64,000 bases of DNA from an uncultured Alphaproteobacteria bacterium (GCA_963817535.1 CAWFOW010000011.1:160398-224397), one strand, 5' to 3'. Counted from the stretch's first letter, positions 21,883 through 57,572 are shown. Notes: generated from the sequence alone by a model not told the origin. A program made the numbers and translations.

Positions 21883-21908
21883 GACATTCGGCATGTTCTG
21901 AAAGCGCG

Positions 21909-23426: not shown

Positions 23427-23464
23427 CGCGGCCGTCGGGCGCAGCGACGCTGCGCCCGCACTGC

Positions 23465-24649
23465 TTGTGGATCACCTGGGTCGACCCGCGAGACGGACAG
23501 AGCGGCGAGTTGATCTATTCCGGCCGCCTGCTCGAATCCCTCGCACGCGCCGGCGCGACGGTCGAGGTGCTGTGCCAGTCGCGCCCAGGTGCGCCCGCGC
23601 GGCTGGTTGATGGCGAGCCGCCCATCCATTGGCACCGCCTTGCACCGAACGCACGGCCGGCTTGGGCGAGCCTCGTTTCCCCGCTGCCGAACGTCGCGTG
23701 GCGGGCGTCGCGTGGCGTCATCGCGTGCGAGCTGCGCGCGCAGCTGGCACGCGAATGCTGGGATTGGGTGATCATCGACGCCTTGCATGCGGGCTGGGCC
23801 TTCGCCGACGTGGCGGCGGCGCGCGCCCGGTCGGGTGGCGCGCGGCCGCGTATCGTCTATGTCGCGCACAACCATGAGGAAACGACGCGGCGGCGCCTGG
23901 CCGGTGGCGCCGGCGGAAGCATGTTGCGGAGGCTCGCCTTCGCGCGCGACGCCGACAAGGCTGGCATGCTCGAGCGCCGCATGGTGGACGAGGCCGACCT
24001 CGTGACAGCGATCACCGACGACGATCGGGACCTGTTCGCCCGGCGGCGCGGCGTCCGCCCCATCGTCGTGCTGCCGCCCGGATATGACGGGCCGCGCCGG
24101 GCGATGCGGCGCTTCGGGCCCGATACGCCGCGCCGCGCGGTGATGGTCGGCAGCTTTCATTGGGTCGCCAAGCAAATGAACCTCGAGCAATTCGTCGCTG
24201 TGGCCGATCCGGTCTTTGCTGCGGCGGGGGTCGAGCTGCGGGTCGTGGGCGGCGGGCCGGAGGCTTTGTTCCGCCGCCTGTCGCGCAAGGTGCGGGCGAC
24301 GCGCTTCACCGGTCCGGTCAAGCGGATCGAGCCCCATATCGAGGACGCGCGCATCGCAATCGTGCCCGAGGAGACGGGCGGCGGCTTCAAGCTCAAGGTA
24401 CTCGATTACGTGTTCAACCGCCTGCCGGTCGCCTGCCTCGATGGCAGCGTGGCCGGTACGCCTTTGGTCGCGCCGGACAGCATGCTGTCCTTCCCTACCT
24501 TCCAGGCACTCGCCGCCGGCGTCGTGGCGGCGATCGACGACGCGGCACAGCTCGAAAGGCTTCAGGCGCGTGCCTTCGATGCTTGCGCCAGCCGGTTCGA
24601 CTGGCAGACCAGGGGGGAGGCGCTGTGTCGGGCGATCTCGGACCTGTGA
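23465..24649 (+). CDS. Glycosyltransferase (GT-B, GT4-like)
   Basis: GT-B pattern (…IVYVAHNHEE…, …AVMVGSFHWVAKQ…, …IVPEETGGGFKLKVLDYV…). The start is uncertain. I chose TTG 23465 because it is the first canonical start after the upstream stop at 23426; the track ORF begins at 23360. Confidence 0.6.
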   Translation: MWITWVDPRDGQSGELIYSGRLLESLARAGATVEVLCQSRPGAPARLVDGEPPIHWHRLAPNARPAWASLVSPLPNVAWRASRGVIACELRAQLARECWDWVIIDALHAGWAFADVAAARARSGGARPRIVYVAHNHEETTRRRLAGGAGGSMLRRLAFARDADKAGMLERRMVDEADLVTAITDDDRDLFARRRGVRPIVVLPPGYDGPRRAMRRFGPDTPRRAVMVGSFHWVAKQMNLEQFVAVADPVFAAAGVELRVVGGGPEALFRRLSRKVRATRFTGPVKRIEPHIEDARIAIVPEETGGGFKLKVLDYVFNRLPVACLDGSVAGTPLVAPDSMLSFPTFQALAAGVVAAIDDAAQLERLQARAFDACASRFDWQTRGEALCRAISDL

Positions 24650-26010
24650 ACGTCGCCCGCAACGCGTCGGCAGACGGGCTCGATACGATCCTGGTCGCGC
24701 TGTTTCTGTTCGGGATCGCCACGGGCATCGCCGTCAACTTTGCGGCCGGCGTGCCGATCCCCGCTGTTCTCGCCGGCGCGGCCGGCGCCGTGCTCCTGAT
24801 CAAGAACCTCGACCGCATCGGCGAGGGCGAGCTGCAGGCGCTGGTCGCGGTGATCATGATCTACCTGCTCTCGATCCTGTGCGCCGGAGGCAGCCAGTAT
24901 TTGCATGAGCGGACGAAGGGCCTCGTACAGCTCGTCTATTCTCTGGTGATTGCCTACGCGCTGTTCCTGACCGCGCTGCGCTACGACCGGCGCAGCTTCG
25001 CGCGCATCTTTCTGGTGGCGTGCTTGTTGATCGTCGTTGGCGCGGCGCTGGAGAACTACACCGGGTTCCGCGCGATCAGCGATGCGTTCCGCCAGAAATT
25101 CTACGATTTCGGCGTGTACCGGGCCGATCTGCGCGACCAGATCCTGTACGGGCGCATCCGTCCCAAGCTGTTCACCTCCGAGCCGTCGGCGCTCACCTTC
25201 GCCTACACGCTGTTCGCGTTCCTGTGGTACGTGCTCTCGCCGGCGCGCGCGAAGATCCTGGGTTTCCTGGCGCTGCTCGCCGCAGGCTATTACCTGATGC
25301 GCGGCCCGACGCTGCTGCTCGGACTTCCGCTCGCCTCCGCCTACGAGCTTCTCCTCGCACCACGCCGGCCGGTCGGCACGTCCAGCCGGATCGACGGGAC
25401 GCGCGTGTTTGCCGGTCTCATGGTCTGCGCGGTCCTTGTCGCGGTCTTCGCGGTGCTGGGCAGCACACTTTACGCCGAGCGTCTCTCGCTGATCGCCCAG
25501 GGCGCCGATCCCAGCTTCTTCTCGCGCGAGCTTGGGCCGTTCCTGGTAGCGAAGGACGTGCTGACCCACCATCCGATCGCCGGGGCGGGGGTGACCGGAG
25601 AGGAGTACATCGCCGAACGCGTGCGGTCGGTCTATCTTGACGCCCGCAACTTCTCGGGCACGGTGACGCTCAGCGACACCGCGCACGTCGTGACGAACTA
25701 TTTCTGGAGCCACTGGATCTATCTCGGCTTCGTGTTCGGCACTGCCACACTTGTCGCGCTCAGCTACTGGCTGCGCGTCCTCGGTGCGCCGAGCCTGCTG
25801 TTTTGCTGGACGGTCTGGGTGCTGTTCGGCCAGGCCTCGGGCGCCTACGTCTCGCCGAAGACCTGGAGCGTCTTGCTGCTGGCCTGTGCCGTCGCCGTGC
25901 TGCACGAGCGTCAGCCGATATTGCGCGTGCCGGCGCACCGCCGGTCCCAGGCCCGCAACTGGCGGGTGCTGCGCCCTGTGTTGACGGCGCAAGGGGGCAC
26001 GCCGCCGTGA
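24646..26010 (+). CDS. Polysaccharide polymerase (Wzy / O-antigen ligase-like membrane protein)
   Basis: GTG 24646 overlaps the upstream stop (GTGA). About 454 aa with 10 or more hydrophobic helices and one larger loop, and no soluble domain. It sits among GT genes in a Wzx-containing locus. Confidence 0.7.
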   Translation: MNVARNASADGLDTILVALFLFGIATGIAVNFAAGVPIPAVLAGAAGAVLLIKNLDRIGEGELQALVAVIMIYLLSILCAGGSQYLHERTKGLVQLVYSLVIAYALFLTALRYDRRSFARIFLVACLLIVVGAALENYTGFRAISDAFRQKFYDFGVYRADLRDQILYGRIRPKLFTSEPSALTFAYTLFAFLWYVLSPARAKILGFLALLAAGYYLMRGPTLLLGLPLASAYELLLAPRRPVGTSSRIDGTRVFAGLMVCAVLVAVFAVLGSTLYAERLSLIAQGADPSFFSRELGPFLVAKDVLTHHPIAGAGVTGEEYIAERVRSVYLDARNFSGTVTLSDTAHVVTNYFWSHWIYLGFVFGTATLVALSYWLRVLGAPSLLFCWTVWVLFGQASGAYVSPKTWSVLLLACAVAVLHERQPILRVPAHRRSQARNWRVLRPVLTAQGGTPP

Positions 26011-27272
26011 GGATCGTCCATCTCTGCTCGACCGACACGCAGGGCGGCGCATCGCGCGGCGCGTACTGGCTGCATCGCGCGCTGTGCGATGCCGGGCTCG
26101 ACTCGCTGATGCTGGTGGATCGCAAATACAGCGACGACGACCGCGTCATCGATGCGAGCGCGGGACCACGGCGCGTGGGACGCGCGCTGCGTGCGCGGCT
26201 CGACGCGCTGCCGCTTGCGCGCTACCGCAAAACCGAAGAGTCGTACTGGTCGGTCGGCTGGGTACCCCACCGCATCGAGCGTGCCCTGGATGCGCTCGAT
26301 CCCGACCTGGTGCACCTGCACTGGATCACGGGTGGGTTCGTACCGGTCGATGCGTTGCGCCGCATCGGGCGGCCGATGGTCTGGACCTTGCGCGACATGT
26401 GGGCCTTCACCGGCGGCTGTCACTATTCCGGTGCCTGCGAACGCTACCAGAATGCATGCGGAACGTGCCCCCAGCTCCGTTCGATGCATGAGAACGACCT
26501 CAGCCGGCGGGTCGTTCGTGCCAAACGGCGCGCCTGGCAGGGGATAGATCTCACGCTGGTTCCGATCAGCCGCTGGCTGGCGACGGCGGCGCGGGCAAGC
26601 CCGCTGTTCGCCGCCAATGCCATGGAGGTCATCCCGAACGGGATCGACGTCAGGAGCTTTCGCCCGATGGACCGCGCGTTGGCGAAACGCGCCCTTGGCT
26701 TTCCCGCCGATCGCTCGCTGATCCTCTTCGGCGCGGTCAATCCGATCGGCGATGCCCGAAAGGGGTTCGGCCCGTTCTGCGAAGCGATGCGAATCCTGGC
26801 CCGAAGGGGCTGGAACGGGTGCGCCGATGCCGCCGTGTTCGGCGCGGCAGAGCCGGAGGAGGGGCTTCCGGCCGGCACGCCGCGGATGCGGTTCCTCGGC
26901 CATGTCGCCGACGACTCGGCGCTCGCTACGCTCTACGCAGCCGCCGACGTGATGGTCACCCCGTCGATGCAGGAGGCGTTCGGCAAGACTCTGATCGAAG
27001 CCTTCGCTTGTGCAACGCCGGTGGTCGCGTTCTCGAGCGGTGGGCCGGCCGACATCGTCAACCATCGGGAAAATGGCTATCTCGCGCCGCCGTTCGAAGC
27101 CGCCGGGCTGGCGGACGGCATTGCCTGGTGCCTCGGTGCACCGGGGCGCGCCGCCGCGCTCGGGCTGCGTGGGCGGGCCAAGGCCGAGGCCATTTACGAT
27201 ATCCGCGTCGTCGCCGCGCGCTATCGCGCGCTCTACCACAACGCGCTGGGCAGGCAGAATGCGGCGGCGTGA
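26007..27272 (+). CDS. Glycosyltransferase family 4
   Basis: GTG 26007 overlaps the upstream stop (GTGA). The N-terminus VRIVHLCSTDTQGGASRGAYWLHRAL and the C-terminal motif …VTPSMQEAFGKTLIEAFACATPVVAFSSGG… are typical of GT4. Confidence 0.85.
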   Translation: MRIVHLCSTDTQGGASRGAYWLHRALCDAGLDSLMLVDRKYSDDDRVIDASAGPRRVGRALRARLDALPLARYRKTEESYWSVGWVPHRIERALDALDPDLVHLHWITGGFVPVDALRRIGRPMVWTLRDMWAFTGGCHYSGACERYQNACGTCPQLRSMHENDLSRRVVRAKRRAWQGIDLTLVPISRWLATAARASPLFAANAMEVIPNGIDVRSFRPMDRALAKRALGFPADRSLILFGAVNPIGDARKGFGPFCEAMRILARRGWNGCADAAVFGAAEPEEGLPAGTPRMRFLGHVADDSALATLYAAADVMVTPSMQEAFGKTLIEAFACATPVVAFSSGGPADIVNHRENGYLAPPFEAAGLADGIAWCLGAPGRAAALGLRGRAKAEAIYDIRVVAARYRALYHNALGRQNAAA

Positions 27273-28497
27273 TTTCTTGCTTGCGGGATCGTCCCTCGCG
27301 CTGGCTGGCCCCGCTGCGGCGGAGCGCCCGCCCGACCCGGCGCGTTCCCTCTCCGCAAGGGGCTATGGCACGCGCGGCGATGGGCAGACCGATGACACGG
27401 CGGCGTTGCAGCGGGCGCTGGACGCGACCTTCGTCGGGCCGGAACCGGGGCTGCTGACCATCGAGCCCGGCACCTACCGGGTCACGAGGCCGCTTCGCAT
27501 CACGTTCGCCGACAAGGGCAGCCAGCATCGCTACACGCGCCGGCACGGCATCGCGGCGCGCGGCGTTCGCATTCTGTCCGAAATTTCCGGTGGCAACGTC
27601 ATCGACATCAAGTCGGAGGCGACCGACCGATTTCTGCTGATCGAGGGAATCGAGATTCAGGGACGCGGCAAGGAAGGTCACGGCCTGTCTCTGAGCTGCA
27701 GCGGGCGCGGGCACTATCTCTACAATTTCTGCCTGCGCGACGTGACGGTCCAGGGCTGCGGCGGCGACGGGCTACGTATGATCGGCAACATCTTCGAAGG
27801 GCAGCTTTACGATTCGTACTTCCGCGACAACAAGGGCAACGGCGCGACGTTCGGCCACGACAAGTCGGGTGGCGTGCTGTCGGCCGTACATGTGTTCGGC
27901 GCGGTGTTCGGCGGAAATGGCGGCGACGGCGCGGCGCTGATCGACGGGGCCGCCGATGTGGGGTTCCACGGCTGCTATTTCCTTCTTAATGACCGGTACG
28001 GGCTGAACGCGGGCAGCGGGTGCACGCTGCTCGCCAATTGCGGCTTCGAGAACAACCATCGCAAGGCACGCGGCTTCGCCGAAGGCGATGCCGGGATCCG
28101 GCTGATGGTGGAGGGCACCCTGATCGGCTGCACCGCCTATTCGATCCACAACCAGACGCATCTTGTGCGTGCCTTCATTTCCAACCGGCTGGTCATGGTG
28201 GGATGTCACGGTCGCGGCGGCGGTGGTGCCAGGCACGCCGGGCTCGCCAAGCTGCAGGGAAACGGCAAGGGCATGGCCACCCTGATCGGCTGCTACGGCG
28301 CGGTTGCCGACAGTGGCGGAATCGGCACGGTCGAGGTCGGCGGGCACGCGGGCGGCGTCCGGTTCGGCTCGCGCTGGGACAGTCCGGCGCTGCCGCGGCT
28401 GGGCGACTACACGCTCTGGGTGGACGGCTCGGGCCGGCTCCGCATCAAACGCGGATCGCCCCGATCCGATGCCGATGGGGGTCCTGTGGGCGCATGA
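27259..28497 (+). CDS. Tat-exported right-handed parallel beta-helix protein (pectate-lyase-3 / glycanase-like)
   Basis: ATG 27259 lies 14 nt inside the upstream GT gene. Twin-arginine signal MRRRDFLLAGSSLALAGPAAA. An opening GYGTRGDGQTDDTAALQRALDA is followed by Gly/Asn-rich beta-helix repeats. Confidence 0.75.
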   Translation: MRRRDFLLAGSSLALAGPAAAERPPDPARSLSARGYGTRGDGQTDDTAALQRALDATFVGPEPGLLTIEPGTYRVTRPLRITFADKGSQHRYTRRHGIAARGVRILSEISGGNVIDIKSEATDRFLLIEGIEIQGRGKEGHGLSLSCSGRGHYLYNFCLRDVTVQGCGGDGLRMIGNIFEGQLYDSYFRDNKGNGATFGHDKSGGVLSAVHVFGAVFGGNGGDGAALIDGAADVGFHGCYFLLNDRYGLNAGSGCTLLANCGFENNHRKARGFAEGDAGIRLMVEGTLIGCTAYSIHNQTHLVRAFISNRLVMVGCHGRGGGGARHAGLAKLQGNGKGMATLIGCYGAVADSGGIGTVEVGGHAGGVRFGSRWDSPALPRLGDYTLWVDGSGRLRIKRGSPRSDADGGPVGA

Positions 28498-29776
28498 GCG
28501 CCGCACGCCGGGCGCGCCGACGCGCGCGACGGGGGCCGTCGGCCAGCGTCTCGTACATCTGTATGAGGCGCGCGTTGAGCACGCGGTTGTCGAAATCGAC
28601 AGCCACCTTATTGCGTGCATTGAAGGCAAGCCAATCGGCGAAGCGCGGCGTCTCGGCAAGGCTGCGCAAGGTAGCGGCCAGCGAATCCGCGTCGCGTTCG
28701 GGAACCAGTAGGCCCGCGACCCCGTGCTGCACCAGCTCGGGGATGGCGCTGTGCCAGGTCGCGACGACCGGTAGTCCGCTCGCCATCGCCTCCATCAACG
28801 TGACCGGGATCCCTTCCTGGTCGCCGTTGGCGTCCGTTGCGCTCGGGGCCACCAGCACGTCGTGCTCGTAATACATGCGTCGCACGGTGTCGGCGTCGCA
28901 CCACCCGGCAAAGCGCACATTGCGCGCCAGAGTGCCGGACCCGACCGCGTTCTCGAGAGCTGCGCGCTGCTCGCCGTCGCCAACGATGGTCAACTCGGCA
29001 GCCACGCCGTGGCGCCGCAGCCGTCGAACGGCCTCCACCGCATAGCTGAAGCCCTTCTTTTCGACCAGCCGCCCGACGCACAGGATACGCAGCGGCGTAC
29101 GTCCACCGGACAGCGGCGTGCGCGCTTGGTAGGGGAATCGCGCAAGGTCGATTCCCATGTGATGGACGACCGTGCGGTCCGGGGGGCAGCCATGAGCGAC
29201 CAGCCGGTCGCGCCATCGCTCGCTGATCGGAAGGAACAAATCGCCATTGGCGAACAGATGGCGGTAGAGGTCGGGATCGGCGTCGAGGCACGCGCTCACG
29301 TCGACGCCGTGGAACGTGACCGCGAGCCGGCCGCGCAAGGCGCCGGCCTCGCGCAGGGCGGCAGCGGTCTGGCCGACCGTGCCGAAATGGCAGTGGACCA
29401 CGTCGAAGGGCCGAATGCCCTCCAGCCGCGCCGCCCAATAGAACAGCGATAGCGATGCAGCTTCGCGGCCATAGCGCCGCGCATCGAGCATGCGCCAAGC
29501 GAAAGCCTTGCGGTGTGCGATGATCTGGGCCGCCAGGACCGCACCGTGGGCGAGGCGCTTCGCATGCGGCTCGGGCATGTCGCGATAGATCGTCCGACCG
29601 GCGAGGCCCCAACGCGCCACGTCGGGATGGACCAGCGCGTCCGCGCGTGGCCGGTCGGCCAGGACGGTCACCTCGTGCCCGGCTTCGAGGAGACCGGTGA
29701 CATGGTTCAGGACGAACGTCTCGCTCAGCGCGGGAAACTCATGCGCCATAACCGCTATGCGCAGCCGGCGCGTCAT
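28445..29776 (-). CDS. Glycosyltransferase family 4 (WcaL/AmsK-like)
   Basis: The N-terminus LRIAVMAHEFPALSETFVLNHV and the C-terminal motif …APSATDANGDQEGIPVTLMEAMASGLPVVAT… fit GT4. Its 3' end overlaps the convergent beta-helix gene by 53 nt. Confidence 0.85.
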   Translation of the reverse strand: MTRRLRIAVMAHEFPALSETFVLNHVTGLLEAGHEVTVLADRPRADALVHPDVARWGLAGRTIYRDMPEPHAKRLAHGAVLAAQIIAHRKAFAWRMLDARRYGREAASLSLFYWAARLEGIRPFDVVHCHFGTVGQTAAALREAGALRGRLAVTFHGVDVSACLDADPDLYRHLFANGDLFLPISERWRDRLVAHGCPPDRTVVHHMGIDLARFPYQARTPLSGGRTPLRILCVGRLVEKKGFSYAVEAVRRLRRHGVAAELTIVGDGEQRAALENAVGSGTLARNVRFAGWCDADTVRRMYYEHDVLVAPSATDANGDQEGIPVTLMEAMASGLPVVATWHSAIPELVQHGVAGLLVPERDADSLAATLRSLAETPRFADWLAFNARNKVAVDFDNRVLNARLIQMYETLADGPRRARRRARRAALMRPQDPHRHRIGAIRV

Positions 29777-31061: not shown

Positions 31062-32021
31062 TCACGCGTGCTCGGTGGCGGGCTCGCGGGTGAAGGCCGC
31101 CCAGGTCCGGCGCAGCCCCTCCGCAAGCGAGGTCGAGGCGCGCCAGCCGAGCGCATCGAGGCGCGTAACATCGAGAAGCTTCTGCGGCGTGCCGTCGGGC
31201 ATGTCGGTGCGGAACCGGAGTGGGCCGGGCAGGCCCGCGATCTCGCGGATCATGTCGGACAGCTCGGCGATCGAGACGTCGGTGCCGGTGCCGACATTGA
31301 TGTGCATCTCGTCCGAATAGCACCTCATCAGGTGCACGCAGGCATCGGCCGCATCGTCGACATAGAGGAACTCGCGCCGCGGCCGGCCGGTGCCCCAGAC
31401 CTCCAGCTCGCGCTCGCCGGCTTCGCGGGCGGCGCGCGCCTTTGCCATCAGCCCGCCGATGACGTGGCCCGACGTGACGTCGAAATTGTCGGCCGGCCCA
31501 TACAGGTTCGTCGGCATCGCCGAAATGAAGTCGCAGCCATGCTGGCGGCGATAGGCCTGGCAAAGCTTGACGCCGGCGATCTTGGCGATGGCGTACCACG
31601 CGTTGGTCGGCTCGAGCTGGCCCTCCAGCAATTCTTCTTCGCGGATCGGCTGCGCGGCATATTTTGGATAGATGCAGGACGAGCCGAGGAACAGCAGTTT
31701 CCGGACGCCGGTACGGCGGGCCGCCTCGATCACATTGGTCGCGATCATCAGATTGTCATAGAGGAACTCGGCCGGCCGCGTGTCGTTGGCATGGATTCCG
31801 CCGACGGTGGCGGCGGCGAGGAACACGGCGTCGGGCCGGTTTCCGGCAAGCCAGGCCTCGACGCGGGCCTGGCGGCGCAGATCGAGCTCGCGACTCGTCG
31901 CGGTCAGGATCTCGCAGTCCTCGCGCTCGAGCCGGCGGACCAGCGCGCTGCCCACCATGCCGGTATGGCCCGCCACCCAGACCTTCTTGCCAGCGAGGTC
32001 GTAGCGGGCTGGACTAAGCAT
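31062..32021 (-). CDS. fcl: GDP-L-fucose synthase (GDP-4-keto-6-deoxy-D-mannose 3,5-epimerase/4-reductase)
   Basis: Motifs: [50 protein letters not shown] and [12 protein letters not shown]. It lies directly downstream of gmd with an 8-nt overlap. Confidence 0.9.
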
Positions 32022-34468: not shown

Positions 34469-36043
34469 TCAGCGGGGCGGGAAGAACTGGTAGAGCCAGG
34501 TTTCGGTGAGGGTCTTGGTCCCAAGCCGGAGGAACAGGCGCAAATTCACAGGGTCCGGACCCGCGATGCGTGCATCGAACAGCGCCCGCCACCGTTTGGT
34601 GCCGACCACCTTGATGACATAGGCGTTGTCGACGGACCCGCGCGACACGACGACCACCGGCGTCACGTCGAACCGGGCGGCCATGTCGGTGAGCACACCA
34701 CCTTCGAAATCGACCACGAATTTCCACTTCTCCCGATCGTCGTGCGTCGATGCGCCGGGAATGCCGCCGTGCCCGATGCGCGTGGCGACCACCCGCCCGA
34801 TGCTTGCCGGCGGAAACGGATTGTCGTTGCTCCAGTGCAACCTGTAGGCGAGCGGCATGGTTCCGCCTGCCTTGATCTCGCGCGCCGCGTGCCAGTAGGC
34901 GACGATGTTGTCGTGGATCTCGTCGTCGGTGGGGATTTCGACGAGCTGCACCGCGCCGGCGCCCCAATCGCCTTTCGGCTCGATCCAGATGCTTGGGCGG
35001 CGGTTGTAGAAAGCGCCGTCGTCCTGGTAGTCATCGAACGCGCGGTCACGCTGCATCAGGCCGAAACCGCGCGGGTTGACGTCGGCGAAGGAATTGGTCT
35101 GAACGACGGGCGGGTTCACCAGCGGGCGCCAGATCCGCTCGCCCATGCCGGTCCACAGCGCCAACCCGTCGCTGTCATGGATCTCCGGCCGCCAGTCGGT
35201 GGCCAGGCGCCGGTTGTTCTCGCCGTACCAGTACATGCTGGTCAAGGGCGCGATGCCCAGGCGGGCAATGTCCGATCGGAAGTACAGGTCCGCCGACACG
35301 TCGATGATCGCGCCCGTTTCCTTGGTGGCGTCGAACCGGTAGGCGCCGGTAAGGCTCGGCCCATCCAGAAGCGCGTATATCGTAATGGCGTTTCCCGACC
35401 GGTCGGGCTCGGCCAGCCAGAACGCGACGAAGCGGGGGAACTCCTCGGTGGTCGACAGTGCGGTGTTGACCGCGACGCCGCGTGCCGAAGCCCCGTACTG
35501 GTTTTCGGCCCCGGCGCTCCGGAAGTAGCTCGCCCCCTGGAAGGCCAGCCAGTCCGTTGCGGCCTCCGGGCCGTTCATAACGCGAAATCCCGAATAGCCG
35601 ACATCAGCGGGCAGCCTGGCCGCCAGATCGGTGTTGCCGAAATCGAAATCGTCGGGCGAATAGATGAGCTGGCGCGCGACGCCGTCTTCGATCCCGTATA
35701 TGCGCACCGGCAATGCATTGAACCTGTCGAGCGGGAACAGGCGGACTGGAAAGGGGCCCGCACCGTTCGGCCAAAGCTCGCGGTCGGAGCGGAACTTGAT
35801 CTTCTGTACGACGTCGAAATCGATCGACTCGATCAGCTTTGGCACGGGCGGTGGCGATGCAACGTAAGGCTTCGCCGCCAGCGCCTGGGCTTGACCTTTG
35901 AGCCGATCCAGGTTGAACGGGTGCGGCGGGCCGAACCGCCCCTTGCCCAGTGCGGCGCGCGCGGGCAGGGCGCCAAGGCCGGCGATGGCAAGCGCCCACG
36001 GCGCGCTGATGGCGAGGAAGCGTCGGCGGCTGAACGTCGGCAT
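34469..36043 (-). CDS. opgD: Periplasmic glucan biosynthesis protein, Tat-exported (OpgD/MdoD-type)
   Basis: ORF 34469-36301 trimmed to ATG 36043. Twin-arginine signal MPTFSRRRFLAISAPWALAIAGLGALPARA. MdoG/MdoD-family pattern along the whole length. Confidence 0.85.
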   Translation of the reverse strand: MPTFSRRRFLAISAPWALAIAGLGALPARAALGKGRFGPPHPFNLDRLKGQAQALAAKPYVASPPPVPKLIESIDFDVVQKIKFRSDRELWPNGAGPFPVRLFPLDRFNALPVRIYGIEDGVARQLIYSPDDFDFGNTDLAARLPADVGYSGFRVMNGPEAATDWLAFQGASYFRSAGAENQYGASARGVAVNTALSTTEEFPRFVAFWLAEPDRSGNAITIYALLDGPSLTGAYRFDATKETGAIIDVSADLYFRSDIARLGIAPLTSMYWYGENNRRLATDWRPEIHDSDGLALWTGMGERIWRPLVNPPVVQTNSFADVNPRGFGLMQRDRAFDDYQDDGAFYNRRPSIWIEPKGDWGAGAVQLVEIPTDDEIHDNIVAYWHAAREIKAGGTMPLAYRLHWSNDNPFPPASIGRVVATRIGHGGIPGASTHDDREKWKFVVDFEGGVLTDMAARFDVTPVVVVSRGSVDNAYVIKVVGTKRWRALFDARIAGPDPVNLRLFLRLGTKTLTETWLYQFFPPR

Positions 36044-36211
36044 GTCGATCCCTGGTTCGAACACGATCACTGCGCCGGCGCACGTGGGCACAGGACCCCG
36101 CCCGGCAAGCACGCCTCGCATTCCGGGATCGTCGCGAGCATCTGTCGCACGTCCGCGTACGGAACCGGTGCGGTCCTGCGCACGTTCGGGATGTCGAGTG
36201 CATTCGGCGCA

Positions 36212-36228
36212 GTGCAATGACGTTGCAC
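36212..36228. promoter_or_regulatory. Palindrome in the opgD/opgH divergent intergenic region
   Basis: GTGCAA-tgacg-TTGCAC (36212-36228) within the 486-nt gap between start codons 36043 (-) and 36530 (+). Confidence 0.2.
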
Positions 36229-36299
36229 CGCACGAAAAGTTCCGATCATCGATTGACCACATTGCGTGCGCGCGGGAACGGATTAGGAGAAGTCCCATC

Positions 36300-36533
36300 A
36301 TGGTGAGGGAGCATCAGCGAAATTCGATCGTCGACGCGGATCTGGACGACGGACCGCCGGACCGGATCGACAGCACGGCCGCCACGCCGCCGCGTTGCCC
36401 CGCCGGCATGCCGGTCCAGAGGATCGAGTTCTGGACGCCGGGCCGCATCGGGGTCGCCATGGTGCGGTTGGTGACGATGCGGCCACACGCCGCGATGCCG
36501 GTCGCTGTCGCGGCAATCCGCGTACGTCGATGA
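36300..36533 (+). CDS. Candidate 77-codon upstream ORF overlapping the opgH start (or a displaced opgH N-terminus)
   Basis: AGGAGA (36285-36290) lies 9 nt before ATG 36300. Third-position GC is high throughout the ORF. The stop TGA 36531-36533 overlaps the opgH ATG at 36530 (ATGA). I recognise no domain. Confidence 0.3.
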   Translation: MVREHQRNSIVDADLDDGPPDRIDSTAATPPRCPAGMPVQRIEFWTPGRIGVAMVRLVTMRPHAAMPVAVAAIRVRR

Positions 36534-38311
36534 ATGATCGCAGGATCGCGCTCCGGCGCTGGCTGTTCCTGGGTCTGGTCGTGGCCACCACAAGCGCTGC
36601 GACCGCCCGCCTCTGGGCCATCCTGAGGGTGGACGGGTTTACGGCGCTGGAAAGCCTTCTGCTTGTCCTGTTCTCGGTCTTGTTTGCCTGGATCACGGCA
36701 TCGTTTTGGATCGCGTGCCTCGGGACGTATGTGCGAAGGCGGTCGGGTCGAGTCGTGCCACTGTCGACAAACTGCGCGGCCGCCACGCGGTCGCGCACCG
36801 CGATCGTGATGCCGGTCTATAACGAAGACGTGAATTCGGTGTTCGCCGGCTTGCGCGCAATGCGCGAATCCCTGCGGCAGGAGGGCGCGCTCGACGCGTT
36901 CGATTTCTTCGTGCTCAGCGACTCGACCGACCCCGCATGCCGTGCTGCCGAAGAGGCGGCTTGGCGTCACCTTCGCGGCGGGGATGCCGATGCAGGGCAG
37001 GTCTATTACCGCCATCGCGCCCGCAACATCGGGCGGAAAAGCGGAAACATCGCCGATTTTTGCGAGAACTGGGGCGCACTCTACGACTACATGGTCGTGC
37101 TCGATGCCGACAGCCTGATGACCGGCGGCACGCTGACGAAGCTTGTCGCGATGATGGACGCGAACCCGCGGGCCGCGCTGATCCAGGTTCCGCCGTCGCT
37201 GGTCGGCGGCGAGTCGCTGTTCGCCCGCATCCAGCAATTCGCCTCGAGCGTCTACGGTCCGATCTACGCGGCGGGGCTGGCGGCGCTACAGGGGCCGGAT
37301 GGCAACTACTGGGGACACAACGCAATCATCCGCGTTGCGCCGTTCATGCGCCATTGCGGGCTGCCGCTGCTGCCAGGTCGGCCTCCGCTCGGCGGCGAGA
37401 TCATGAGCCACGACTTCGTCGAGGCCGCCCTGCTGCGGCGCGCCGGGTGGGAGGTCTGGCTCGCCCCAGCGCTCGGCGGCAGCTTCGAGGCATCGCCGCC
37501 CACTTTGCTCGACCATCTGAAGCGCGACCGGCGCTGGTGCCAGGGCAACTTGCAGCATATGAGACTGATCTTCGCCCAGGGCTTCCGCATGCCGAGCCGG
37601 CTGCATTTTGCGTTGGGCGTCATGAGCTACCTGTCGTCGCCGTTGTGGCTGCTGCTGCTCGTCGTCTCGACCGCGGAGGCGCTCAGCGTCGAGCATGTGG
37701 CGCGCGTCACCTATGTCGGCCGCTACCCCGTCCTTGCCTGGCCGATCTCGCACACGGTCGCGCTGGTCACGCTGGTCGGCGCGACCCTTGTGCTTCTGTT
37801 CGGCCCGAAGGTACTGTCGGTGCTGGCACTGTTCCGCGACCCCGTCGCCGTCCGAGCGCATGGCGGCGCCGCGCGTCTCGCGTTCAGCGTCGTGGTGGAA
37901 AGCGTGTTTTCCACATTGCTTGCCCCGATCGTGATGCTGTCGCATAGCTGGTTCGTGCTCAGCATTTTGACCGGCCGCGGGACGGGCTGGGGCGGACAGC
38001 AGCGCGGCAGCAGGGGCATTGCGGTCGGCACCGCGATGCGCGCCTTCGGTCCGCACACCCTGGCCGCGCTGGCGATGGGCGCGGTGATCTGGCGCTTTAC
38101 GCCGGAGACCCTTTGGTGGAACGCGCCGCTGCTGTCGGGCCTGGTTATGGCCATCGTCATCTGCTGCGTGACCAGTGTCCCCGCCTGGGGCGCGGCGGCA
38201 CGGCGCGCCGGGCTGCTGCTAATTCCGAGCGAATCGACAGGTCTGGGGGTTCTCGATCAGGTCAGGGCGATCCTCGCGCGGCGGGAGGGCGCGCCATTCT
38301 CGGCGGTCTGA
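36530..38311 (+). CDS. opgH: Glucans biosynthesis glucosyltransferase H (OPG synthase, GT2)
   Basis: ORF 36395-38311 trimmed to ATG 36530. The GT2 core is colinear with E. coli MdoH as remembered: TAIVMPVYNEDV, VLSDSTD, VVLDADSLM, YWGHNAIIR, SHDFVEAALLRRAGW, RDRRWCQGNLQH. It has multiple TM helices. Confidence 0.9.
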   Translation: MNDRRIALRRWLFLGLVVATTSAATARLWAILRVDGFTALESLLLVLFSVLFAWITASFWIACLGTYVRRRSGRVVPLSTNCAAATRSRTAIVMPVYNEDVNSVFAGLRAMRESLRQEGALDAFDFFVLSDSTDPACRAAEEAAWRHLRGGDADAGQVYYRHRARNIGRKSGNIADFCENWGALYDYMVVLDADSLMTGGTLTKLVAMMDANPRAALIQVPPSLVGGESLFARIQQFASSVYGPIYAAGLAALQGPDGNYWGHNAIIRVAPFMRHCGLPLLPGRPPLGGEIMSHDFVEAALLRRAGWEVWLAPALGGSFEASPPTLLDHLKRDRRWCQGNLQHMRLIFAQGFRMPSRLHFALGVMSYLSSPLWLLLLVVSTAEALSVEHVARVTYVGRYPVLAWPISHTVALVTLVGATLVLLFGPKVLSVLALFRDPVAVRAHGGAARLAFSVVVESVFSTLLAPIVMLSHSWFVLSILTGRGTGWGGQQRGSRGIAVGTAMRAFGPHTLAALAMGAVIWRFTPETLWWNAPLLSGLVMAIVICCVTSVPAWGAAARRAGLLLIPSESTGLGVLDQVRAILARREGAPFSAV

Positions 38312-38997
38312 CCCTTGCGATCGAGGCCGCGCGCCTCTCTCCGCTGGCGCGCCGGGTCCGCCGAGCCAACCTGACCTATCTGTCGCCGGCCAAGCTGCAT
38401 GCGCTCGAGAGTGCGCTGCGCGAGGTCCGGCGGGAGGGGGTGCCTGGCGATTTTCTCGAGTTCGGTGTGGCCCTTGGGGGCTCAGCGGTCCTGATCGCCT
38501 CTAACATGCCGGATCGCGCTGCGTTCCATGGCTATGACGTGTTCGGCACGATCCCGCCGCCCGGGCCTGAGGACGATGCCGACGCCCATACACGGTACGG
38601 GCAGATCAGTGGCGGCACTTCGCCGGGAATCGGCGGCGAGACCTATTACGGCTATCTCGGCGATCTTTACGAGCGTGTGTGCGCCACGTTCGCAGCACTC
38701 GACCGGCCCGTCGACGGGCGGCGCATCGTGCTGCATCGCGGGCTGTTCGAGGAGACGCTGGACGCCGCGGAGACGCGCCCGGTCGCCTTCGCCCATATCG
38801 ACTGCGACTGGTATGCGCCGGTGACCTACTGCCTCGCGTCGCTGCGCGATCGCCTGGCGCCGGGCGCGCGGATCGTGCTCGACGACTATAACGATTACGG
38901 GGGGTGCCGTAAGGCGGTCGATACGTTCGTGGGCGACGATCCCGGGATCGTGGTCGAGCGTATGACCCCCAGCGCTATTCTTCGACGTTGCGGCTAA
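38308..38997 (+). CDS. TylF/MycF-family SAM-dependent O-methyltransferase
   Basis: Motifs: GDFLEFGVALGGSAVLIA (SAM motif I), HIDCDWYAPV (metal site) and IVLDDYNDYGG. The start is unresolved. There is no ATG, GTG or TTG in frame between 38116 and 38440. The options are TTG 38113 or GTG 38116 (about 196-199 nt inside opgH) or a CTG at 38308 overlapping the opgH stop. Confidence 0.7.
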   Translation: MTLAIEAARLSPLARRVRRANLTYLSPAKLHALESALREVRREGVPGDFLEFGVALGGSAVLIASNMPDRAAFHGYDVFGTIPPPGPEDDADAHTRYGQISGGTSPGIGGETYYGYLGDLYERVCATFAALDRPVDGRRIVLHRGLFEETLDAAETRPVAFAHIDCDWYAPVTYCLASLRDRLAPGARIVLDDYNDYGGCRKAVDTFVGDDPGIVVERMTPSAILRRCG

Positions 38998-40210
38998 GCG
39001 ACGGAACTTTTGCAATCTCGGTCCCGGCCAGGTGGGTCAGGCGCGGTTTCATCGTGCGCCACCAGCCGCTTCCCGCAGCGCCCCGGACCACCGATACGGC
39101 ATGGCGGACCGAGAATGAGCGTCCGATTGCCACCTCTGCCGCTCGCCACAACGCGTGGTCGCCGGAGCGTCGTGCGGCTGCCACAATTTCCTCGTAGTAG
39201 CTCCAGGCTTGGCTGGGCACCCGGAGGCGGTGGACGCGGCCCAGGTCGAGCGGCGCGGCAAAGGTCCGGGCGCGGTCGAGGGCGCCGCAAGCACGAAGCG
39301 CCATCATTGTCCTGAGGCACTTTTCACACTTGCCACAATTATAGCTGGACGTGTCGGCGAAGCATACGCGGAGCGTTTCCAGGGCGAGCGGGTGCGCCGC
39401 CAGCTTGTGGGTCTTTTCCAGCCGGCCCGCCTCGCACCCGTCGTGCCGCACGGTGAGATGCCCGTTCGACCAGAGCGGGTCGAGCAGCGGCGACGAGCCC
39501 CATGGAAAGATGTGGGCGTAAGTGTGGCTCGCCGGTACGATCAGTTCGCGAAGGTCGTGGCGCATTGTGAGGGCGACCGAAGCGATCGCCGCGCCATGCA
39601 GGCAACGACCCCAGAAATCGATCTCGCATGTCCGGCCCCATCCCGAGCGCCGCTTGTCTGCGATCGGTCGCAAATTGGTCGTGCAGGTAATGAGACGCAT
39701 GCCGAGGCTTCGGGCCACGACCTGGGCACGGTACCGCGTGTCATCCCACAGCACGTCATTGTCGAGCCCGATATCGAATCCTCGAACGAGGAGCAGGTGG
39801 CTGATCCGGCTCTGATGTTTCAGCAGCGAGTACCAGCTGTCGACGCCACCGGTGAAGCAGGCCGCAATGCCCGTTGCGCACGCGTCGACGTTCGACGGTT
39901 CGACAAGATCGGCCGATACCTCGATCGGAGTGAGAAAGTCATACCAGGTCGAGAGCACCGCCTGTGCCTGTTGAAGATTGTCGAGAAGCGCATTTGAGAC
40001 GGCTCCCTCGATATGGAGCGCTTCGCCCTCGAACATTGCCGGCGCCAGCAGCGCAACGGCCAGCGCGTCGCCGAGCCCGTCGAGTGGACCGTCTACACCT
40101 TCAAAGGCGAAACGCAGCGTGAGCGGCAAATCGGTGCACGTCGGCAGGATTCGCGCCGTAGCGACCGCCGTATTGCCATCGCGCTGCTCGTCCAGGTCGA
40201 CTATTCGCAT
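38975..40210 (-). CDS. QueC-like PP-loop ATPase-fold protein with extra N- and C-terminal regions (function unknown)
   Basis: 411 aa. TGGVDS at residues 120-125 (nt 39836-39853) is a variant of the SGGxDS PP-loop. C283-x8-C292-x2-C295-x2-C298-LR (nt 39311-39364) has the same spacing as the QueC zinc site. Its 3' end overlaps the convergent methyltransferase gene by 23 nt. Confidence 0.6.
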   Translation of the reverse strand: MRIVDLDEQRDGNTAVATARILPTCTDLPLTLRFAFEGVDGPLDGLGDALAVALLAPAMFEGEALHIEGAVSNALLDNLQQAQAVLSTWYDFLTPIEVSADLVEPSNVDACATGIAACFTGGVDSWYSLLKHQSRISHLLLVRGFDIGLDNDVLWDDTRYRAQVVARSLGMRLITCTTNLRPIADKRRSGWGRTCEIDFWGRCLHGAAIASVALTMRHDLRELIVPASHTYAHIFPWGSSPLLDPLWSNGHLTVRHDGCEAGRLEKTHKLAAHPLALETLRVCFADTSSYNCGKCEKCLRTMMALRACGALDRARTFAAPLDLGRVHRLRVPSQAWSYYEEIVAAARRSGDHALWRAAEVAIGRSFSVRHAVSVVRGAAGSGWWRTMKPRLTHLAGTEIAKVPSLSRNVEE

Positions 40211-40309: not shown

Positions 40310-41875
40310 TCATTGCGGCTGTGCGGGCGCGGTCGAGGTGCCCGGGTCGGCAGCGGGGTTGTGCCGCATCAGGCGGGGAAGCCGCAGGATTCCGCGCAGG
40401 GCTTGGCGTCCGCGCGGGATCACCATATAGACAGCCAGGGCGACTGCGACCGCGATAGCGGTCAAAATGGCGACTTCGACGCCCAGCGGCAGGCCGGGCA
40501 GGACCTGGCGGGTGGCATGCACCGCAAGCCCCGAAGCGAGGGCCGCCGCGGCCGGGGTCGCGAGGATGGTGTAGAAGTCGCGCGTGCGCACCGGGCCCCG
40601 CCGCCCGGCCAAGTGGAACAGGATCGGCGCCCGTACCGCGATGCCGCTGACGGCGAGGGTGGCGGCGACACCCGCCGCCCCGAACGGCAGCCCGCACAGG
40701 ATTGCGGCGACGGCAAGGGCGGCGCCGACCATGCCGGCGCGCAGCATTTCCGGCGTGCGGTCCTGGCTGAGATAGAGCCAACTCAACGCATAGGTGGCTG
40801 GCACGTACACCGTCGTCGCGCCCATCCAGGCGAGGATCGGCGCCGCGTTGCCCCATTGTGGGCCCAGCACCAGAACGATTACCGGGCCCGCGGCGGCGGC
40901 GAGCAGCGCGCCCAGCGGCGCGAACAGCATGGCGACCTGCTCGACCGCGGCGAGATACACCGCGCGATAGCGCTTCGGTTGCTTGTCCAGCCGGCTCAGC
41001 GCGGTGACCATCACCGTCCCGAGCGGCATGTTGAGGTTGCGCACCGGCAGCAGCAGCAGCTTCTGCGAGCGCTCATACAGCCCGAGCGACACCGCGCCGT
41101 AGCGCCATCCGATCAGCACGGCATCGAGATTGGCGGCGAGGTAGCTCACGATCATCGCGGCGGTGGCGTTGCCGCCAAATGCGACGAAGCTGCGCACCTC
41201 GGCGAACGGTCCCGGCCGGCCGGGCCGCCAACCGCAGGCGATCCAGGCTGCCGCGGCGATCGCCGCGGCCCAGGTCAGGCGCTGGATCACCAGCGCCCAG
41301 ATGCCCGCCCCGGCAAAGGCGGAGGCCACGGCGGCCGCGAGGCCGGCCACTTCGGCGCCCATCTGGATATAGGCGAGAAGGCTGAAGCGCATCTGGCGCC
41401 GCAGCAGGGCGAGATGCTGGGCCGCGATCCCGGTGAACAGGAAGCCGACGGCAAGGGCGGGCGTAATGGCGAGCAGGATGGGCTCGCCATAGATCCAGGC
41501 GAGGATCGGCGCGAGTCCCGCCATCACGGCCGTTGCGGCGAGCCCGAGCGCGCCGTTGAGCCAGAACAGCGTGTCGATCTGGCGTGCCCCGATCTCGCGG
41601 CGCTGCACGGTAGCCGTCGACAGGCCAAGGTCCTTGAACAGCTCGAGCGCGGCGAGGAACGCGGCGACCATGGCGAAGCGGCCGAAATCCTCGGGTGCGA
41701 GCAGCCGGGCCAGCACCACGATGGCGCCGGTCTGGACCACCACCTTCGCCGCCTGCATGGCGATGGTGACGATTCCGCCACGCACCGACCGTGCGATCAG
41801 GTCCTGTTCAAGATGCGCGACCTCCAGATAGGAGTCGGTCCGGGATCCCGCTGGCGCCTGCCGCCGACGGCTCAT
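40310..41875 (-). CDS. Polysaccharide flippase (Wzx; MOP/PST superfamily)
   Basis: 521 aa with about 12-14 TM helices. The Polysacc_synt-type N-terminus (…RSVRGGIVTIAMQAAKVVVQTGAIVVLARLLAPEDFG…) is typical of Wzx/PssL-like flippases. Confidence 0.85.
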   Translation of the reverse strand: MSRRRQAPAGSRTDSYLEVAHLEQDLIARSVRGGIVTIAMQAAKVVVQTGAIVVLARLLAPEDFGRFAMVAAFLAALELFKDLGLSTATVQRREIGARQIDTLFWLNGALGLAATAVMAGLAPILAWIYGEPILLAITPALAVGFLFTGIAAQHLALLRRQMRFSLLAYIQMGAEVAGLAAAVASAFAGAGIWALVIQRLTWAAAIAAAAWIACGWRPGRPGPFAEVRSFVAFGGNATAAMIVSYLAANLDAVLIGWRYGAVSLGLYERSQKLLLLPVRNLNMPLGTVMVTALSRLDKQPKRYRAVYLAAVEQVAMLFAPLGALLAAAAGPVIVLVLGPQWGNAAPILAWMGATTVYVPATYALSWLYLSQDRTPEMLRAGMVGAALAVAAILCGLPFGAAGVAATLAVSGIAVRAPILFHLAGRRGPVRTRDFYTILATPAAAALASGLAVHATRQVLPGLPLGVEVAILTAIAVAVALAVYMVIPRGRQALRGILRLPRLMRHNPAADPGTSTAPAQPQ

Positions 41876-56724: not shown

Positions 56725-56939
56725 CGGCCCCCTCGGCGGCGTTCGCGCCCCGGGCGGGCGCGCCCGGCGAGTGTTAACACGGCCCGCGCGGGCGAGGCCA
56801 GCACAGGCGCCGAGCGTGATTTTCCCGCAATTGGCCGGGTACCGTGTCTTTTGACATTCGGGAAACCAGGCCGTAAGAATTCGGTGGTTTCATTCCGCCA
56901 CGTATCTTGCGCGAAACTTGCAAGCTGGGAGGACGACCC

Positions 56940-57572
56940 GTGGTTCGTATCCGGAGCCTCAACGCGATTGCCGCCGCGTTTCTCGCCGCCGGGCTCGCCC
57001 TCGCGGGCTGCAGCGGGGCGCCCGAACTGCCCTCGGCCTCGCTGCTGCAGCAGGCGAAGGCGCAGCAGACCGAGTACCACATCGGTCCGCTCGATTTCCT
57101 GCAGATCTTCGTGTGGCGCAATCCCGACCTCTCGACCAGCGTGCCGGTCCGCCCCGACGGGCGCATCTCGGTGCCGCTGATCGAGGACCTGCCTGCGGCC
57201 AACAAGACCCCCACCCAGCTTGCCCGCGACATCGAGAAGAAGCTCGGCGTGTTCGTCCAGGATCCGATCGTCACCGTGATCGTGACCAACTTCGTCGGCC
57301 CATTCAACGACCAGGTGCGGGTGGTGGGCGAGGCGGCACAGCCCCAGGCGCTCGCCTACCGGACGACGATGACGCTGCTGGACGTGATGATTTCGGTCGG
57401 AGGCATTACCGATTTCGCTGCCGGGAACCGCGCCAGCATCACCCGGGTGGTCGACGGCAAGGAAGCCCATTTCCGCGTGCGGCTGGACGACCTGCTGCGC
57501 GACGGCGACCTGACCGCGAACGTACGCGTCCTGCCGGGCGACATCATCACAATTCCGGAAGCGTGGTTCTAG
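56940..57572 (+). CDS. Polysaccharide export lipoprotein (PEP-CTERM/XrtA-type EpsE-like OPX)
   Basis: GTG 56940 follows GGGAGGA; the track ORF starts at TTG 56907. Lipobox LALAGC. Poly_export pattern: YHIGPLDFLQIFVWRNPDLSTSVPVRPDGRISVPLIEDLPAANKTPTQL, RVVGEAAQPQALAY, LLDVMISVGGITDFAAGNRA. Confidence 0.8.
   Translation: MVRIRSLNAIAAAFLAAGLALAGCSGAPELPSASLLQQAKAQQTEYHIGPLDFLQIFVWRNPDLSTSVPVRPDGRISVPLIEDLPAANKTPTQLARDIEKKLGVFVQDPIVTVIVTNFVGPFNDQVRVVGEAAQPQALAYRTTMTLLDVMISVGGITDFAAGNRASITRVVDGKEAHFRVRLDDLLRDGDLTANVRVLPGDIITIPEAWF

Follow-up and report, generated by a model that had tools for sequence, protein, structure and literature searches.

A gene at positions 38975 to 40210 on the minus strand of a 64,000 nucleotide (nt) stretch of DNA from an uncultured Alphaproteobacteria bacterium (GCA_963817535.1 CAWFOW010000011.1:160398-224397, called the window here at its full length) encodes a protein of 411 amino acids (aa) which is best placed in a large new family inside the PP-loop superfamily, invisible to present annotation pipelines. 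We are highly confident that the core of this protein has a QueC-like PP-loop fold, and there is good reason to regard it as an enzyme of glycan modification. A functional partnership of the family with polysaccharide pyruvyl transferases appears reasonably likely. The explanation which accounts best for all observations taken together, namely that the family was recruited from nucleobase chemistry to glycan modification and has a pyruvyl transferase as its recurrent partner, is held as possible rather than probable. The further proposal that this widespread family turns the carboxylate of glycan pyruvate ketals into an amide, maybe a nitrile, or an amine conjugate is put forward tentatively.

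The gene and the parts of its product are located as follows.

38975..40210 (including the stop codon), minus strand: coding sequence of the 411 aa QueC-like PP-loop protein, from translation of the open reading frame (ORF) with an ATG start
39887..40210, minus strand: N-terminal domain, residues ~1–108, beta-beta-beta-alpha-alpha-beta-alpha-beta in the model
39221..39886, minus strand: PP-loop ATP-pyrophosphatase core, QueC-like, residues ~109–330, from the core-only model and Foldseek
39836..39853, minus strand: PP-loop motif TGGVDS, residues 120–125, from the translation; the family consensus is SGGVDS
39317..39364, minus strand: cluster of four cysteines (Cys4), C283-x8-C292-x2-C295-x2-C298 (CFADTSSYNCGKCEKC), presumed zinc site, from conservation and QueC spacing
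39035..39220, minus strand: C-terminal helical region, residues ~331–392, from the model helices, followed by a low-confidence tail (393–411)

The start codon agrees with the N-terminus of the homologues (MRI..D) in the family alignment, and the G+C content at the three codon positions (0.67/0.51/0.75 for the first, second, and third position), in a window of 67.5% G+C, fits a real gene. Both motifs had been described in a first-pass annotation made from the sequence alone, and their positions and spacings proved to be exact in the translation. TGGVDS directly follows a modelled strand (residues 113–117), and the cysteine cluster together with the subsequent LR occupies residues 283–300 (nt 39311–39364) as C283-FADTSSYN-C292-GK-C295-EK-C298-LR. 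The separation of the two motifs is 157 residues, where about 160 had been claimed. The Cys4 site presumably binds zinc.

The full-length AlphaFold2 model of the protein, calculated with the family alignment, had a predicted local distance difference test score (pLDDT) of 92.5 and a predicted template modelling score of 0.88. Its C-terminal part consists of helices at 332–348, 351–360, and 367–379 and others, with pLDDT values below 50 from residue 391. A Foldseek search of the PDB with this model gave nothing at E <= 0.001, the highest probability being that of QueC (2pg3, 0.95), and it gave no convincing match for the N-terminal domain. The lack of a match was resolved by modelling the core alone (residues 105–335, pLDDT 91.4). 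QueC 2pg3 then came first with an E of 5e-4, a probability of 1.00 and a template modelling (TM) score of 0.60 on the query and 0.63 on the target. The alignment covered 224 columns over the 221-residue chain at 11% identity, and QueC was the sole match to be spanned over its whole chain, which bears out the QueC relationship initially surmised from the motifs. Next in rank came TrmU/MnmA, YcfA, GMP synthetase, carbapenam synthetase, TtuA, argininosuccinate synthetase, and NMN synthetase, which are all ATP pyrophosphatases of the PP-loop type, and the top ~20 matches of the core were PP-loop enzymes with probabilities of 0.9–1.0.

Sequence profiles gave far less. The protein on its own had no match at threshold in Pfam, NCBIfam, the PDB sequences or PADLOC, in keeping with the earlier remark that it could not be placed in a described family. 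In NCBIfam 0 families came up at E <= 10, and the sole Pfam trace was to DUF6395 (PF19932; E 0.11, 12.9 bits vs a gathering score of 25). The Pfam QueC model (PF06508) did not hit the protein; it was found below threshold in 11 of 37 relatives (E 0.009–1, best 15.9 bits vs a cutoff of 22), in alignments which placed the cysteine cluster region on profile positions 164–206 of 210. Asn_synthase was seen in one of the 37 relatives over the PP-loop region (E 0.001, 19.2 bits vs a cutoff of 21), with no GATase hit, and traces of Diphthami_syn_2 occurred among them over the same region. The only match in a search of the PDB sequences with the family profile, a coiled-coil-like one to a designed protein, was rejected as spurious. 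The core is a remote relative of QueC in the PP-loop superfamily, which lies outside the QueC family by threshold and by architecture.

A word index yielded more than 750 homologues, all of them bearing the name 'hypothetical protein' and lacking any precomputed Pfam domain. With a hidden Markov model (HMM) built from a 37-sequence alignment, an exhaustive search of clusters at 50% identity retrieved 9,636 representative clusters at E <= 1e-3, and 4,577 at E <= 1e-30. When one genome per species was scanned, at least 578 species proved to carry a member. The best 80 of these, with up to 10 kb on each side of the gene, form the basis of all neighbourhood statistics given below; they span Alphaproteobacteria, Gammaproteobacteria, Desulfobacterota, Planctomycetota, Verrucomicrobiota, Acidobacteriota, Actinomycetota, Chloroflexota, Cyanobacteria, Patescibacteria, and Bathyarchaeia. 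Copies are also carried on plasmids of haloarchaea, Azospirillum, Gloeothece, Nostoc, and Priestia. A literature search revealed no description of the family.

Conservation was counted in 236 members with a length of 300–520 aa. The four cysteines of the Cys4 site are present in all 236. In the PP-loop the columns read S204/T32, G182/A36, G235, V220, D231, and S231, such that the threonine which opens the motif in the window protein is a minority variant (14%) of a canonical SGGVDS consensus. This conservation, for which the first-pass annotation had suggested a check among orthologues, shows that the motifs have not arisen by chance. Threonine 178, asparagine 179, arginine 181, aspartate 244, tryptophan 247, histidine 256, aspartate 257, glutamate 260, lysine 266, and lysine 297 are nearly invariant across the family as well, and the near-invariant PP-loop together with the polar residues is the pattern expected of an active site under selection. 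In the N-terminal domain tryptophan 88 is invariant and glutamine 82 nearly so in the family alignment (numbering without the initial methionine). The additional N-terminal and C-terminal parts relative to QueC had been noted before and were recovered both in the model and in the coverage of the family. The N-terminal ~108 residues and the C-terminal helices lie within most family hits, which mostly start at profile positions ~1–50, and these extra domains therefore define the family and are not peculiar to the protein of the window.

Some members are joined to a second domain in one polypeptide, and these fusions include PS_pyruv_trans (P0125, P0160), GT2 (P0127), and an S-adenosylmethionine (SAM) dependent methyltransferase (P0187). 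Whole-protein tandem duplications of 700–870 aa with two matched stretches occur in P0028, P0121, P0122, P0128, P0141, P0143, and others; P0028 and several of these duplicated proteins have no additional Pfam domain and offered no clue to the function. Duplications or adjacent paralogue pairs were found in 10 of the 80 loci (L021, L025, L040, L042, L043, L048, L051, L065, L071, L078), and their frequency hints that the protein works as a dimer or heterodimer. One contig carries P0039 and P0053 side by side. P0238 (662 aa) combines the family protein with a Beta-lactamase2 domain (E 3e-36).

The pyruvyl transferases of the 80 loci were detected with an iterated HMM, and genes at a distance of up to 200 nt were counted as adjacent. 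PS_pyruv_trans was found within 10 kb in 48 of the 80 loci, within 3 kb in 43, and adjacent in 29. For comparison, GT4 was adjacent in 6 loci and GT2 in 9, though both are more numerous in these loci, and a rough calculation based on the number of ORFs in these loci puts chance adjacency at about 5. Of the 24 adjacent pairs which the first detection pass gave, 20 were encoded on the same strand, with the transferase upstream in 10, so that the order is not fixed. RefSeq, whose annotation does not depend on the gene calling used here, lists a 'polysaccharide pyruvyl transferase family protein' immediately before the homologue WP_237907922.1 of Azospirillum brasilense on its upstream side, where the two form an isolated two-gene module among unrelated genes. 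In Gloeothece PCC 7822 such a transferase is directly upstream of the homologue WP_013334578.1 as well, at the end of a GT1-GT4-GT operon. The pyruvyl transferase of the window matched an HMM of the relatives' partner transferases with an E of 1.3e-57.

Nine homologue contexts with precomputed Pfam annotation were inspected, and seven of these are glycan loci, P0021 and the duplicated P0028 being without glycan neighbours. The closest relative (P0002, 68% identity) keeps the order of a Wzx-type flippase followed by the gene. Wzx, the homologue, and an ATPgrasp_ST gene are consecutive in P0005, and in P0011 a divergent Wzx precedes the homologue and ATPgrasp_ST. P0050 and P0027 contain the colanic acid-like block of the window (GT4, beta-helix protein, GT4, pyruvyl transferase, Wzx, Fcl, Gmd), which faces the homologue, ATPgrasp_ST, and an MdoH-like GT2. 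The P0095 context has a pair of AsnB-like genes and a pyruvyl transferase, then the homologue, then a GT2 and a methyltransferase. In the Nostoc context P0072 an ATP-binding cassette (ABC) transporter, the homologue, an FrhB-like protein, and a pyruvyl transferase occur together. A relative from Nostoc sp. ATCC 53789 (L002, 11339–14064) has an FrhB/FdhB-like gene, resembling the beta subunit of F420 dehydrogenase, between homologue and pyruvyl transferase.

Clustering of the six-frame ORFs of the 80 loci and annotation of the recurrent clusters gave GT4 (33 loci), GT2 (28), ABC ATPase (22), epimerase/dehydratase (14), ABC-2 permease (10), nucleotidyl transferase (8), Wzz/kinase (7), and Wzx in two clusters (7 and 6 loci), PS_pyruv_trans being split over several separate clusters in this procedure. 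Genes for QueC, QueD, QueE, QueF, QueA, and Tgt were not detected in 87 related loci (1.65 Mb) by tblastn with single E. coli queries, a search of limited sensitivity, and FolE gave one hit among these loci, in L034. In the window, tblastn with E. coli QueC, QueD, QueE, QueF, QueA, Tgt, and FolE gave none at E <= 1e-3, in agreement with what had been said of queD, queE, queF, tgt, and folE. The first-pass annotation had suggested a look at whether orthologues share the neighbourhood seen in the window: they sit in glycan loci and not in 7-deazaguanine loci, but Wzx is kept only in close alphaproteobacterial relatives and TylF is not conserved. No TylF-family gene was present beside the homologues examined, and TylF was dismissed as a conserved partner. 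Other SAM methyltransferases occur near a relative (L007), besides the fusion in P0187.

An ATPgrasp_ST gene directly follows the family gene in a subset of alphaproteobacterial contexts (P0005, P0011, P0027, P0050, L010–L012). It was located at L090 11224–12387, L091 11359–12375, L003 11238–12434, L006 11196–12401, and in L010–L012; it overlaps the family gene in four loci and lies 125 nt downstream in L091. ATPgrasp_ST, reportedly defined by Iyer et al. in 2009, was rejected as a general partner, since neither the window nor any of the other 77 loci has it. At 7521–9823 of the L006 locus, from a member of the Rhodovibrionaceae, two genes run divergently from the homologue, one for NTP_transf_5 and one with weak hits to PqqD and ScmC; these are more typical of peptide-modification clusters.

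In the window itself the gene is part of a single polysaccharide locus at ~14.9–41.9 kb, which was delineated by Pfam scans and by tblastn with the colanic acid proteins of E. coli. Its other genes are the following.

14937–16274: beta-barrel porin
16326–17093: Wza-like export protein
17093–19375: Wzc-like kinase
19323–20591: GT4, WcaI-like, 30% identity to E. coli WcaI
20596–21882: GT4
21624–23426: priming transferase, 38% identical to WcaJ
23360–24649: GT4
24160–26010, plus strand: 616 aa ORF between glycosyltransferase genes, without a Pfam match
25803–27272: GT4
27010–28497: beta-helix protein, WcaM-like
28445–29776, minus strand: WcaL-like GT4, 40% identity
29773–31050, minus strand: WcaK-like polysaccharide pyruvyl transferase, Pfam PS_pyruv_trans E 1.8e-30, start uncertain (ATG at 31050 or GTG at 31065)
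31062–32021, minus strand: Fcl, 51% identity
32014–33498, minus strand: Gmd, 64% identity
33054–34388, minus strand: GT4
34469–36301, minus strand: MdoG-like protein, Pfam MdoG E 1e-188
36395–38311, plus strand: MdoH-like GT2
38113–38997, plus strand: TylF-family O-methyltransferase, Pfam TylF E 1.6e-23, convergent with the PP-loop gene and overlapping its 3' end by 23 nt
40310–41875, minus strand: Wzx-type repeat-unit flippase, Pfam Polysacc_synt_3 E 7e-77, 22% identical to E. coli WzxC

The two neighbours named in the first-pass annotation, the convergent TylF gene with its 23 nt overlap and the Wzx flippase, are both confirmed by Pfam. Wzx lies 99 nt upstream of the PP-loop gene on the same strand with no terminator-like site on the minus strand between them, and from this arrangement the two are probably co-transcribed. 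Beyond Wzx unrelated genes follow (ornithine cyclodeaminase, a 2-oxoglutarate dependent oxygenase, and a luciferase-like monooxygenase). The pyruvyl transferase is the only one in the window and shows 22% identity to E. coli WcaK over 382 aa. Tblastn of the window with E. coli Ugd found no ugd, and there was no hit of the WcaA type. This gene content suggests a fucose-containing, pyruvylated exopolysaccharide (EPS) without glucuronic acid as the likely product of the locus. The location of the 616 aa ORF suggests a Wzy-type polymerase; at the equivalent position an unannotated gene of 467 aa is found in L003/L004.

The divergent arrangement of the MdoG-like and MdoH-like genes inside an EPS locus is an unusual setting for genes of the osmoregulated glucan type. 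For the TylF ORF only TTG and GTG are available as start candidates, at 38113 and 38116, and its first ~199 nt lie, in a different frame, on the last part of the GT2 ORF, which has its stop at 38311; this overlap could be real, could be due to a mis-set stop or start, or could reflect a frameshift. A second Wza-like export gene (27% identical to E. coli Wza) is located on the plus strand at 56877–57572, ~15 kb past the EPS locus.

In PP-loop enzymes the oxygen of a carbonyl or carboxylate is adenylated and the group is afterwards handed to a nucleophile, and flippases are selective for their substrate. We infer that the protein is a cytoplasmic ATP-dependent adenylating enzyme which acts on the repeat unit before flipping; the substrate selectivity of flippases and the dedicated pairing with Wzx in close relatives fit this timing. 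As the window has no ugd, a pyruvate ketal is the only carboxylate source encoded by the locus. Among the relatives ugd was found by tblastn with E. coli Ugd within 10 kb in 4 of 80, three of which also have a pyruvyl transferase. Set against the 48 of 80 loci with a pyruvyl transferase, and with no ugd in the window, this makes adenylation of the ketal followed by amidation the most economical mechanism. QueC and ToyM convert a carboxylate via an amide to a nitrile using ATP and free ammonia (PMC13060819). In the proposed sequence of events the WcaK-like transferase, judging from its family, would place a pyruvate ketal with a free carboxylate on the lipid-linked repeat unit. The PP-loop protein would then bind ATP and magnesium and adenylate the ketal carboxylate with release of pyrophosphate, as its fold and SGGxDS motif suggest. 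By analogy, ammonia or an amine would displace AMP to yield a neutral amide, a second ATP could carry the amide on to a nitrile as in QueC, and the adjacent dedicated Wzx would flip the modified unit. In the alphaproteobacterial subclade with a translationally coupled ATPgrasp_ST ligase, conjugation to an amine may occur as well. Amidation as the specific chemistry at the pyruvate ketal carboxylate, being drawn from analogy, may be right, though we would not count on it.

Several observations weigh against this picture. No pyruvyl transferase was found in the available DNA of 32 of the 80 loci, 11 of which are shorter than 15 kb, and the one of the window, while in the same locus, lies 7.4 kb from the PP-loop gene and is not adjacent to it. 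P0005 and P0011 present the module of Wzx, PP-loop gene, and ATP-grasp gene apart from any large glycan locus and without a pyruvyl transferase. The similarity to QueC is remote, with 11% identity and no HMM at threshold, and the substrate pocket is not inferable from QueC. When the family alignment was compared by hhalign with E. coli QueC alone or with 17 enterobacterial QueC sequences, only the PP-loop was aligned, at probabilities of 4–8%; the relatives of this template were at least 81% identical, giving an effective number of sequences of 1.4, so that the template had hardly any diversity and this result does not count as a negative. A literature search did not turn up an amidated or nitrile-bearing pyruvate ketal in any glycan, so the proposed product is without known precedent, which lowers its prior probability.

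The first-pass annotation had proposed an enzyme which decorates the polysaccharide, with uronic acid as an example. The checks by computation suggested there (fold, conservation of the motifs, and neighbourhood of orthologues) all came out in favour of this proposal, and no outcome which it had named as refuting was seen. The glycan context of this proposal is supported and carboxylate activation is still what we infer, whereas the uronic acid example is now less favoured. In such a reaction, which would be independent of pyruvylation, the carboxylate of a uronic acid would be adenylated and amidated to a uronamide by the same PP-loop chemistry. Uronamides are known glycan decorations, and AsnB-type amidotransferases adjoin some relatives (L007, L048), indicating that amidation is common in such loci. 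The scarcity of ugd near the relatives and its absence from the window speak against this, with the reservation that ugd may be encoded elsewhere in the genome, and the adjacency to PS_pyruv_trans and the fusions with it would be left unexplained. We regard the uronamide route as rather unlikely.

The tight pairing and the fusions with PS_pyruv_trans in no fixed gene order, together with carbapenam synthetase among the structural neighbours, would also agree with a PP-loop protein which acts before or together with the pyruvyl transferase-like protein and activates a small carboxylic acid, an alternative donor, as an acyl-adenylate, from which the GT-B-like partner would transfer the group to the sugar. 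Equally, it could close a lactone or lactam ring within one molecule, in the manner of beta-lactam and carbapenam synthetases. PP-loop enzymes, however, normally retain the adenylate and finish the reaction themselves according to general knowledge, and the transferase of the window stands in the canonical WcaL-WcaK-Fcl-Gmd order, which suggests an ordinary pyruvyl transferase dependent on phosphoenolpyruvate. This explanation, too, is considered rather improbable.

A low probability is assigned to a thiolating or amidine-forming enzyme acting on a sugar substituent, either like WbpG/PseA (acetamido to acetamidino) or like MnmA/YcfA (carbonyl to thiocarbonyl). MnmA/TrmU, YcfA, and TtuA come closest in structure once QueC is set aside, and proteins of the WbpG type are generally known as PP-loop proteins of glycan loci. 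With zero NCBIfam hits, however, there is none to the N-acetyl sugar amidotransferase model, and the recurrent neighbours include no HisH/HisF-like partner and no cluster of sulfur carriers or cysteine desulfurases. Nor is there an invariant cysteine beyond the QueC-type four, the cysteine of the HDGCE stretch being threonine, glycine or serine in several members.

A role without catalysis, as a scaffold for the pyruvyl transferase or the flippase or as a regulator of either, in which the fold was kept and the activity lost, has a similarly slight chance. Tandem duplications and paralogue pairs are frequent in the family, and such pairs at times include an inactive partner. Against a loss of activity stand the PP-loop positions found in 235 (G), 231 (D), and 231 (S) of 236 members, and the near-invariance across phyla of threonine 178, asparagine 179, arginine 181, aspartate 244, histidine 256, aspartate 257, glutamate 260, and lysine 266.

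That the protein is a true 7-deazaguanine enzyme (of the QueC, ToyM, DpdC or QatC type) merely located in an EPS locus, in parallel to the rhizobial ExsB, is effectively refuted by context, thresholds, and architecture: in its favour are QueC as best structural match, the identical Cys4 spacing, and the former name ExsB of the QueC family, which is kept by P0257, but tblastn with single E. coli queries detected no que or tgt genes in the window or in the 87 loci (FolE occurring once, in L034), the Pfam QueC threshold was missed by 37 of 37 members, nothing of DpdC or QatC appears in PADLOC beyond a PP-loop trace, and the build of three domains, the setting among glycan genes, and the fusions to PS_pyruv_trans and GT2 all disagree with it.

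Pyruvate ketals are among the main contributors of negative charge to bacterial exopolysaccharides, capsules, and secondary cell-wall polymers and to certain archaeal glycans, and they control cation binding, viscosity, anchoring of S-layers, recognition by phages and lectins, and industrial properties such as those of xanthan and of colanic acid-like gums. What is new is a large, phylogenetically broad family which is genetically coupled to polysaccharide pyruvylation, and this coupling in over half of its occurrences implies a second, unrecognised step of the pathway. If the proposed amidation of the ketal is true, this step would be an undescribed class of polysaccharide decoration which cancels the negative charge introduced by pyruvylation. 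The protein would also be the first QueC-type enzyme to work on a carbohydrate, extending this type beyond nucleobase substrates. As all 9,636 clusters are annotated as 'hypothetical protein' with no Pfam or NCBIfam model, characterisation of one member would annotate thousands of genes, and as carriers such as Azospirillum brasilense, Gloeothece PCC 7822/7424, Priestia, and haloarchaea can be cultured and are tractable, the hypothesis is directly testable.

Among known systems the closest in structure are QueC and ToyM. They share with the new family an SGGxDS motif near the start of the catalytic domain, and C-x8-C-x2-C-x2-C followed by LR ~160–175 residues downstream. E. coli K-12 QueC, as read from the genome, has SGGQDS at residues 9–14 and C188-x8-C197-x2-C200-x2-C203-N-L-R, and agrees with the cysteine spacing and the QueC-like distance between the motifs which the first-pass annotation had given; it differs by one additional residue (N) before LR which is absent in the window protein. 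They probably share the chemistry as well, in which a carboxylate is adenylated at the expense of ATP and attacked by a nitrogen nucleophile. QueC, however, is a single-domain protein of ~220–240 aa, whereas the window protein has 411 aa with an N-terminal domain of ~108 aa and ~80 aa of C-terminal helices, and it is encoded amid glycan genes and not in a context of queD, queE, queF, and tgt. From the low identity, the missed threshold, the architecture, and the glycan context it follows that the substrate is almost certainly not 7-carboxy-7-deazaguanine.

DpdC and QatC offer a parallel as QueC-derived PP-loop proteins recruited to a new context. A DpdC-like enzyme unrelated to EPS had been considered as an alternative in the first-pass annotation and is abandoned in view of the glycan neighbourhoods and of the PADLOC search, which gave no DpdC match. 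QatC appeared only as a trace in P0095 (E 0.022, PP-loop only), and no defence genes are among the neighbours.

DUF6395 (PF19932) was seen below threshold in 11 of 37 members (E 0.024–0.11), where the cysteine cluster region aligned to profile positions ~25–61 of 174. The scores were 13–22 bits vs the gathering score of 25, with P0122 as the best relative (22.4 bits). DUF6395 is itself uncharacterised, and a literature search found no paper mentioning it. On the strength of these alignments it may be a sister family which shares the CxxCxKC ribbon.

MnmA/TrmU, YcfA (6-thioguanine), GMP synthetase, carbapenam synthetase, TtuA, and the nitrile synthetase ArtA have the Rossmann-like ATP-pyrophosphatase core in common with the window protein (probabilities 0.9–1.0). 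They differ by partial alignments (TM scores of 0.2–0.5 on their chains), by other metal or cysteine sites, and by substrates which are nucleic acids, nucleotides or small molecules.

The closest functional analogy, from general knowledge, is to WbpG/PseA/LfnA and AsnB-like enzymes such as WbpS, which are PP-loop enzymes of glycan loci and use ATP to convert a sugar carbonyl or carboxylate to an amidine or amide. The window protein, on the other hand, matches no NCBIfam or Pfam model of these enzymes and has neither a glutaminase domain nor a HisH/HisF-like partner, and the hallmark partner of the WbpG, PseA, and AsnB types is not a pyruvyl transferase. To our knowledge, these enzymes are without a Cys4 site of the QueC type. 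The protein of the window is thus not a member of the QueC, WbpG/PseA, AsnB, DpdC or QatC groups; its core is of the QueC type, and it would work in the manner of a PP-loop amidotransferase.

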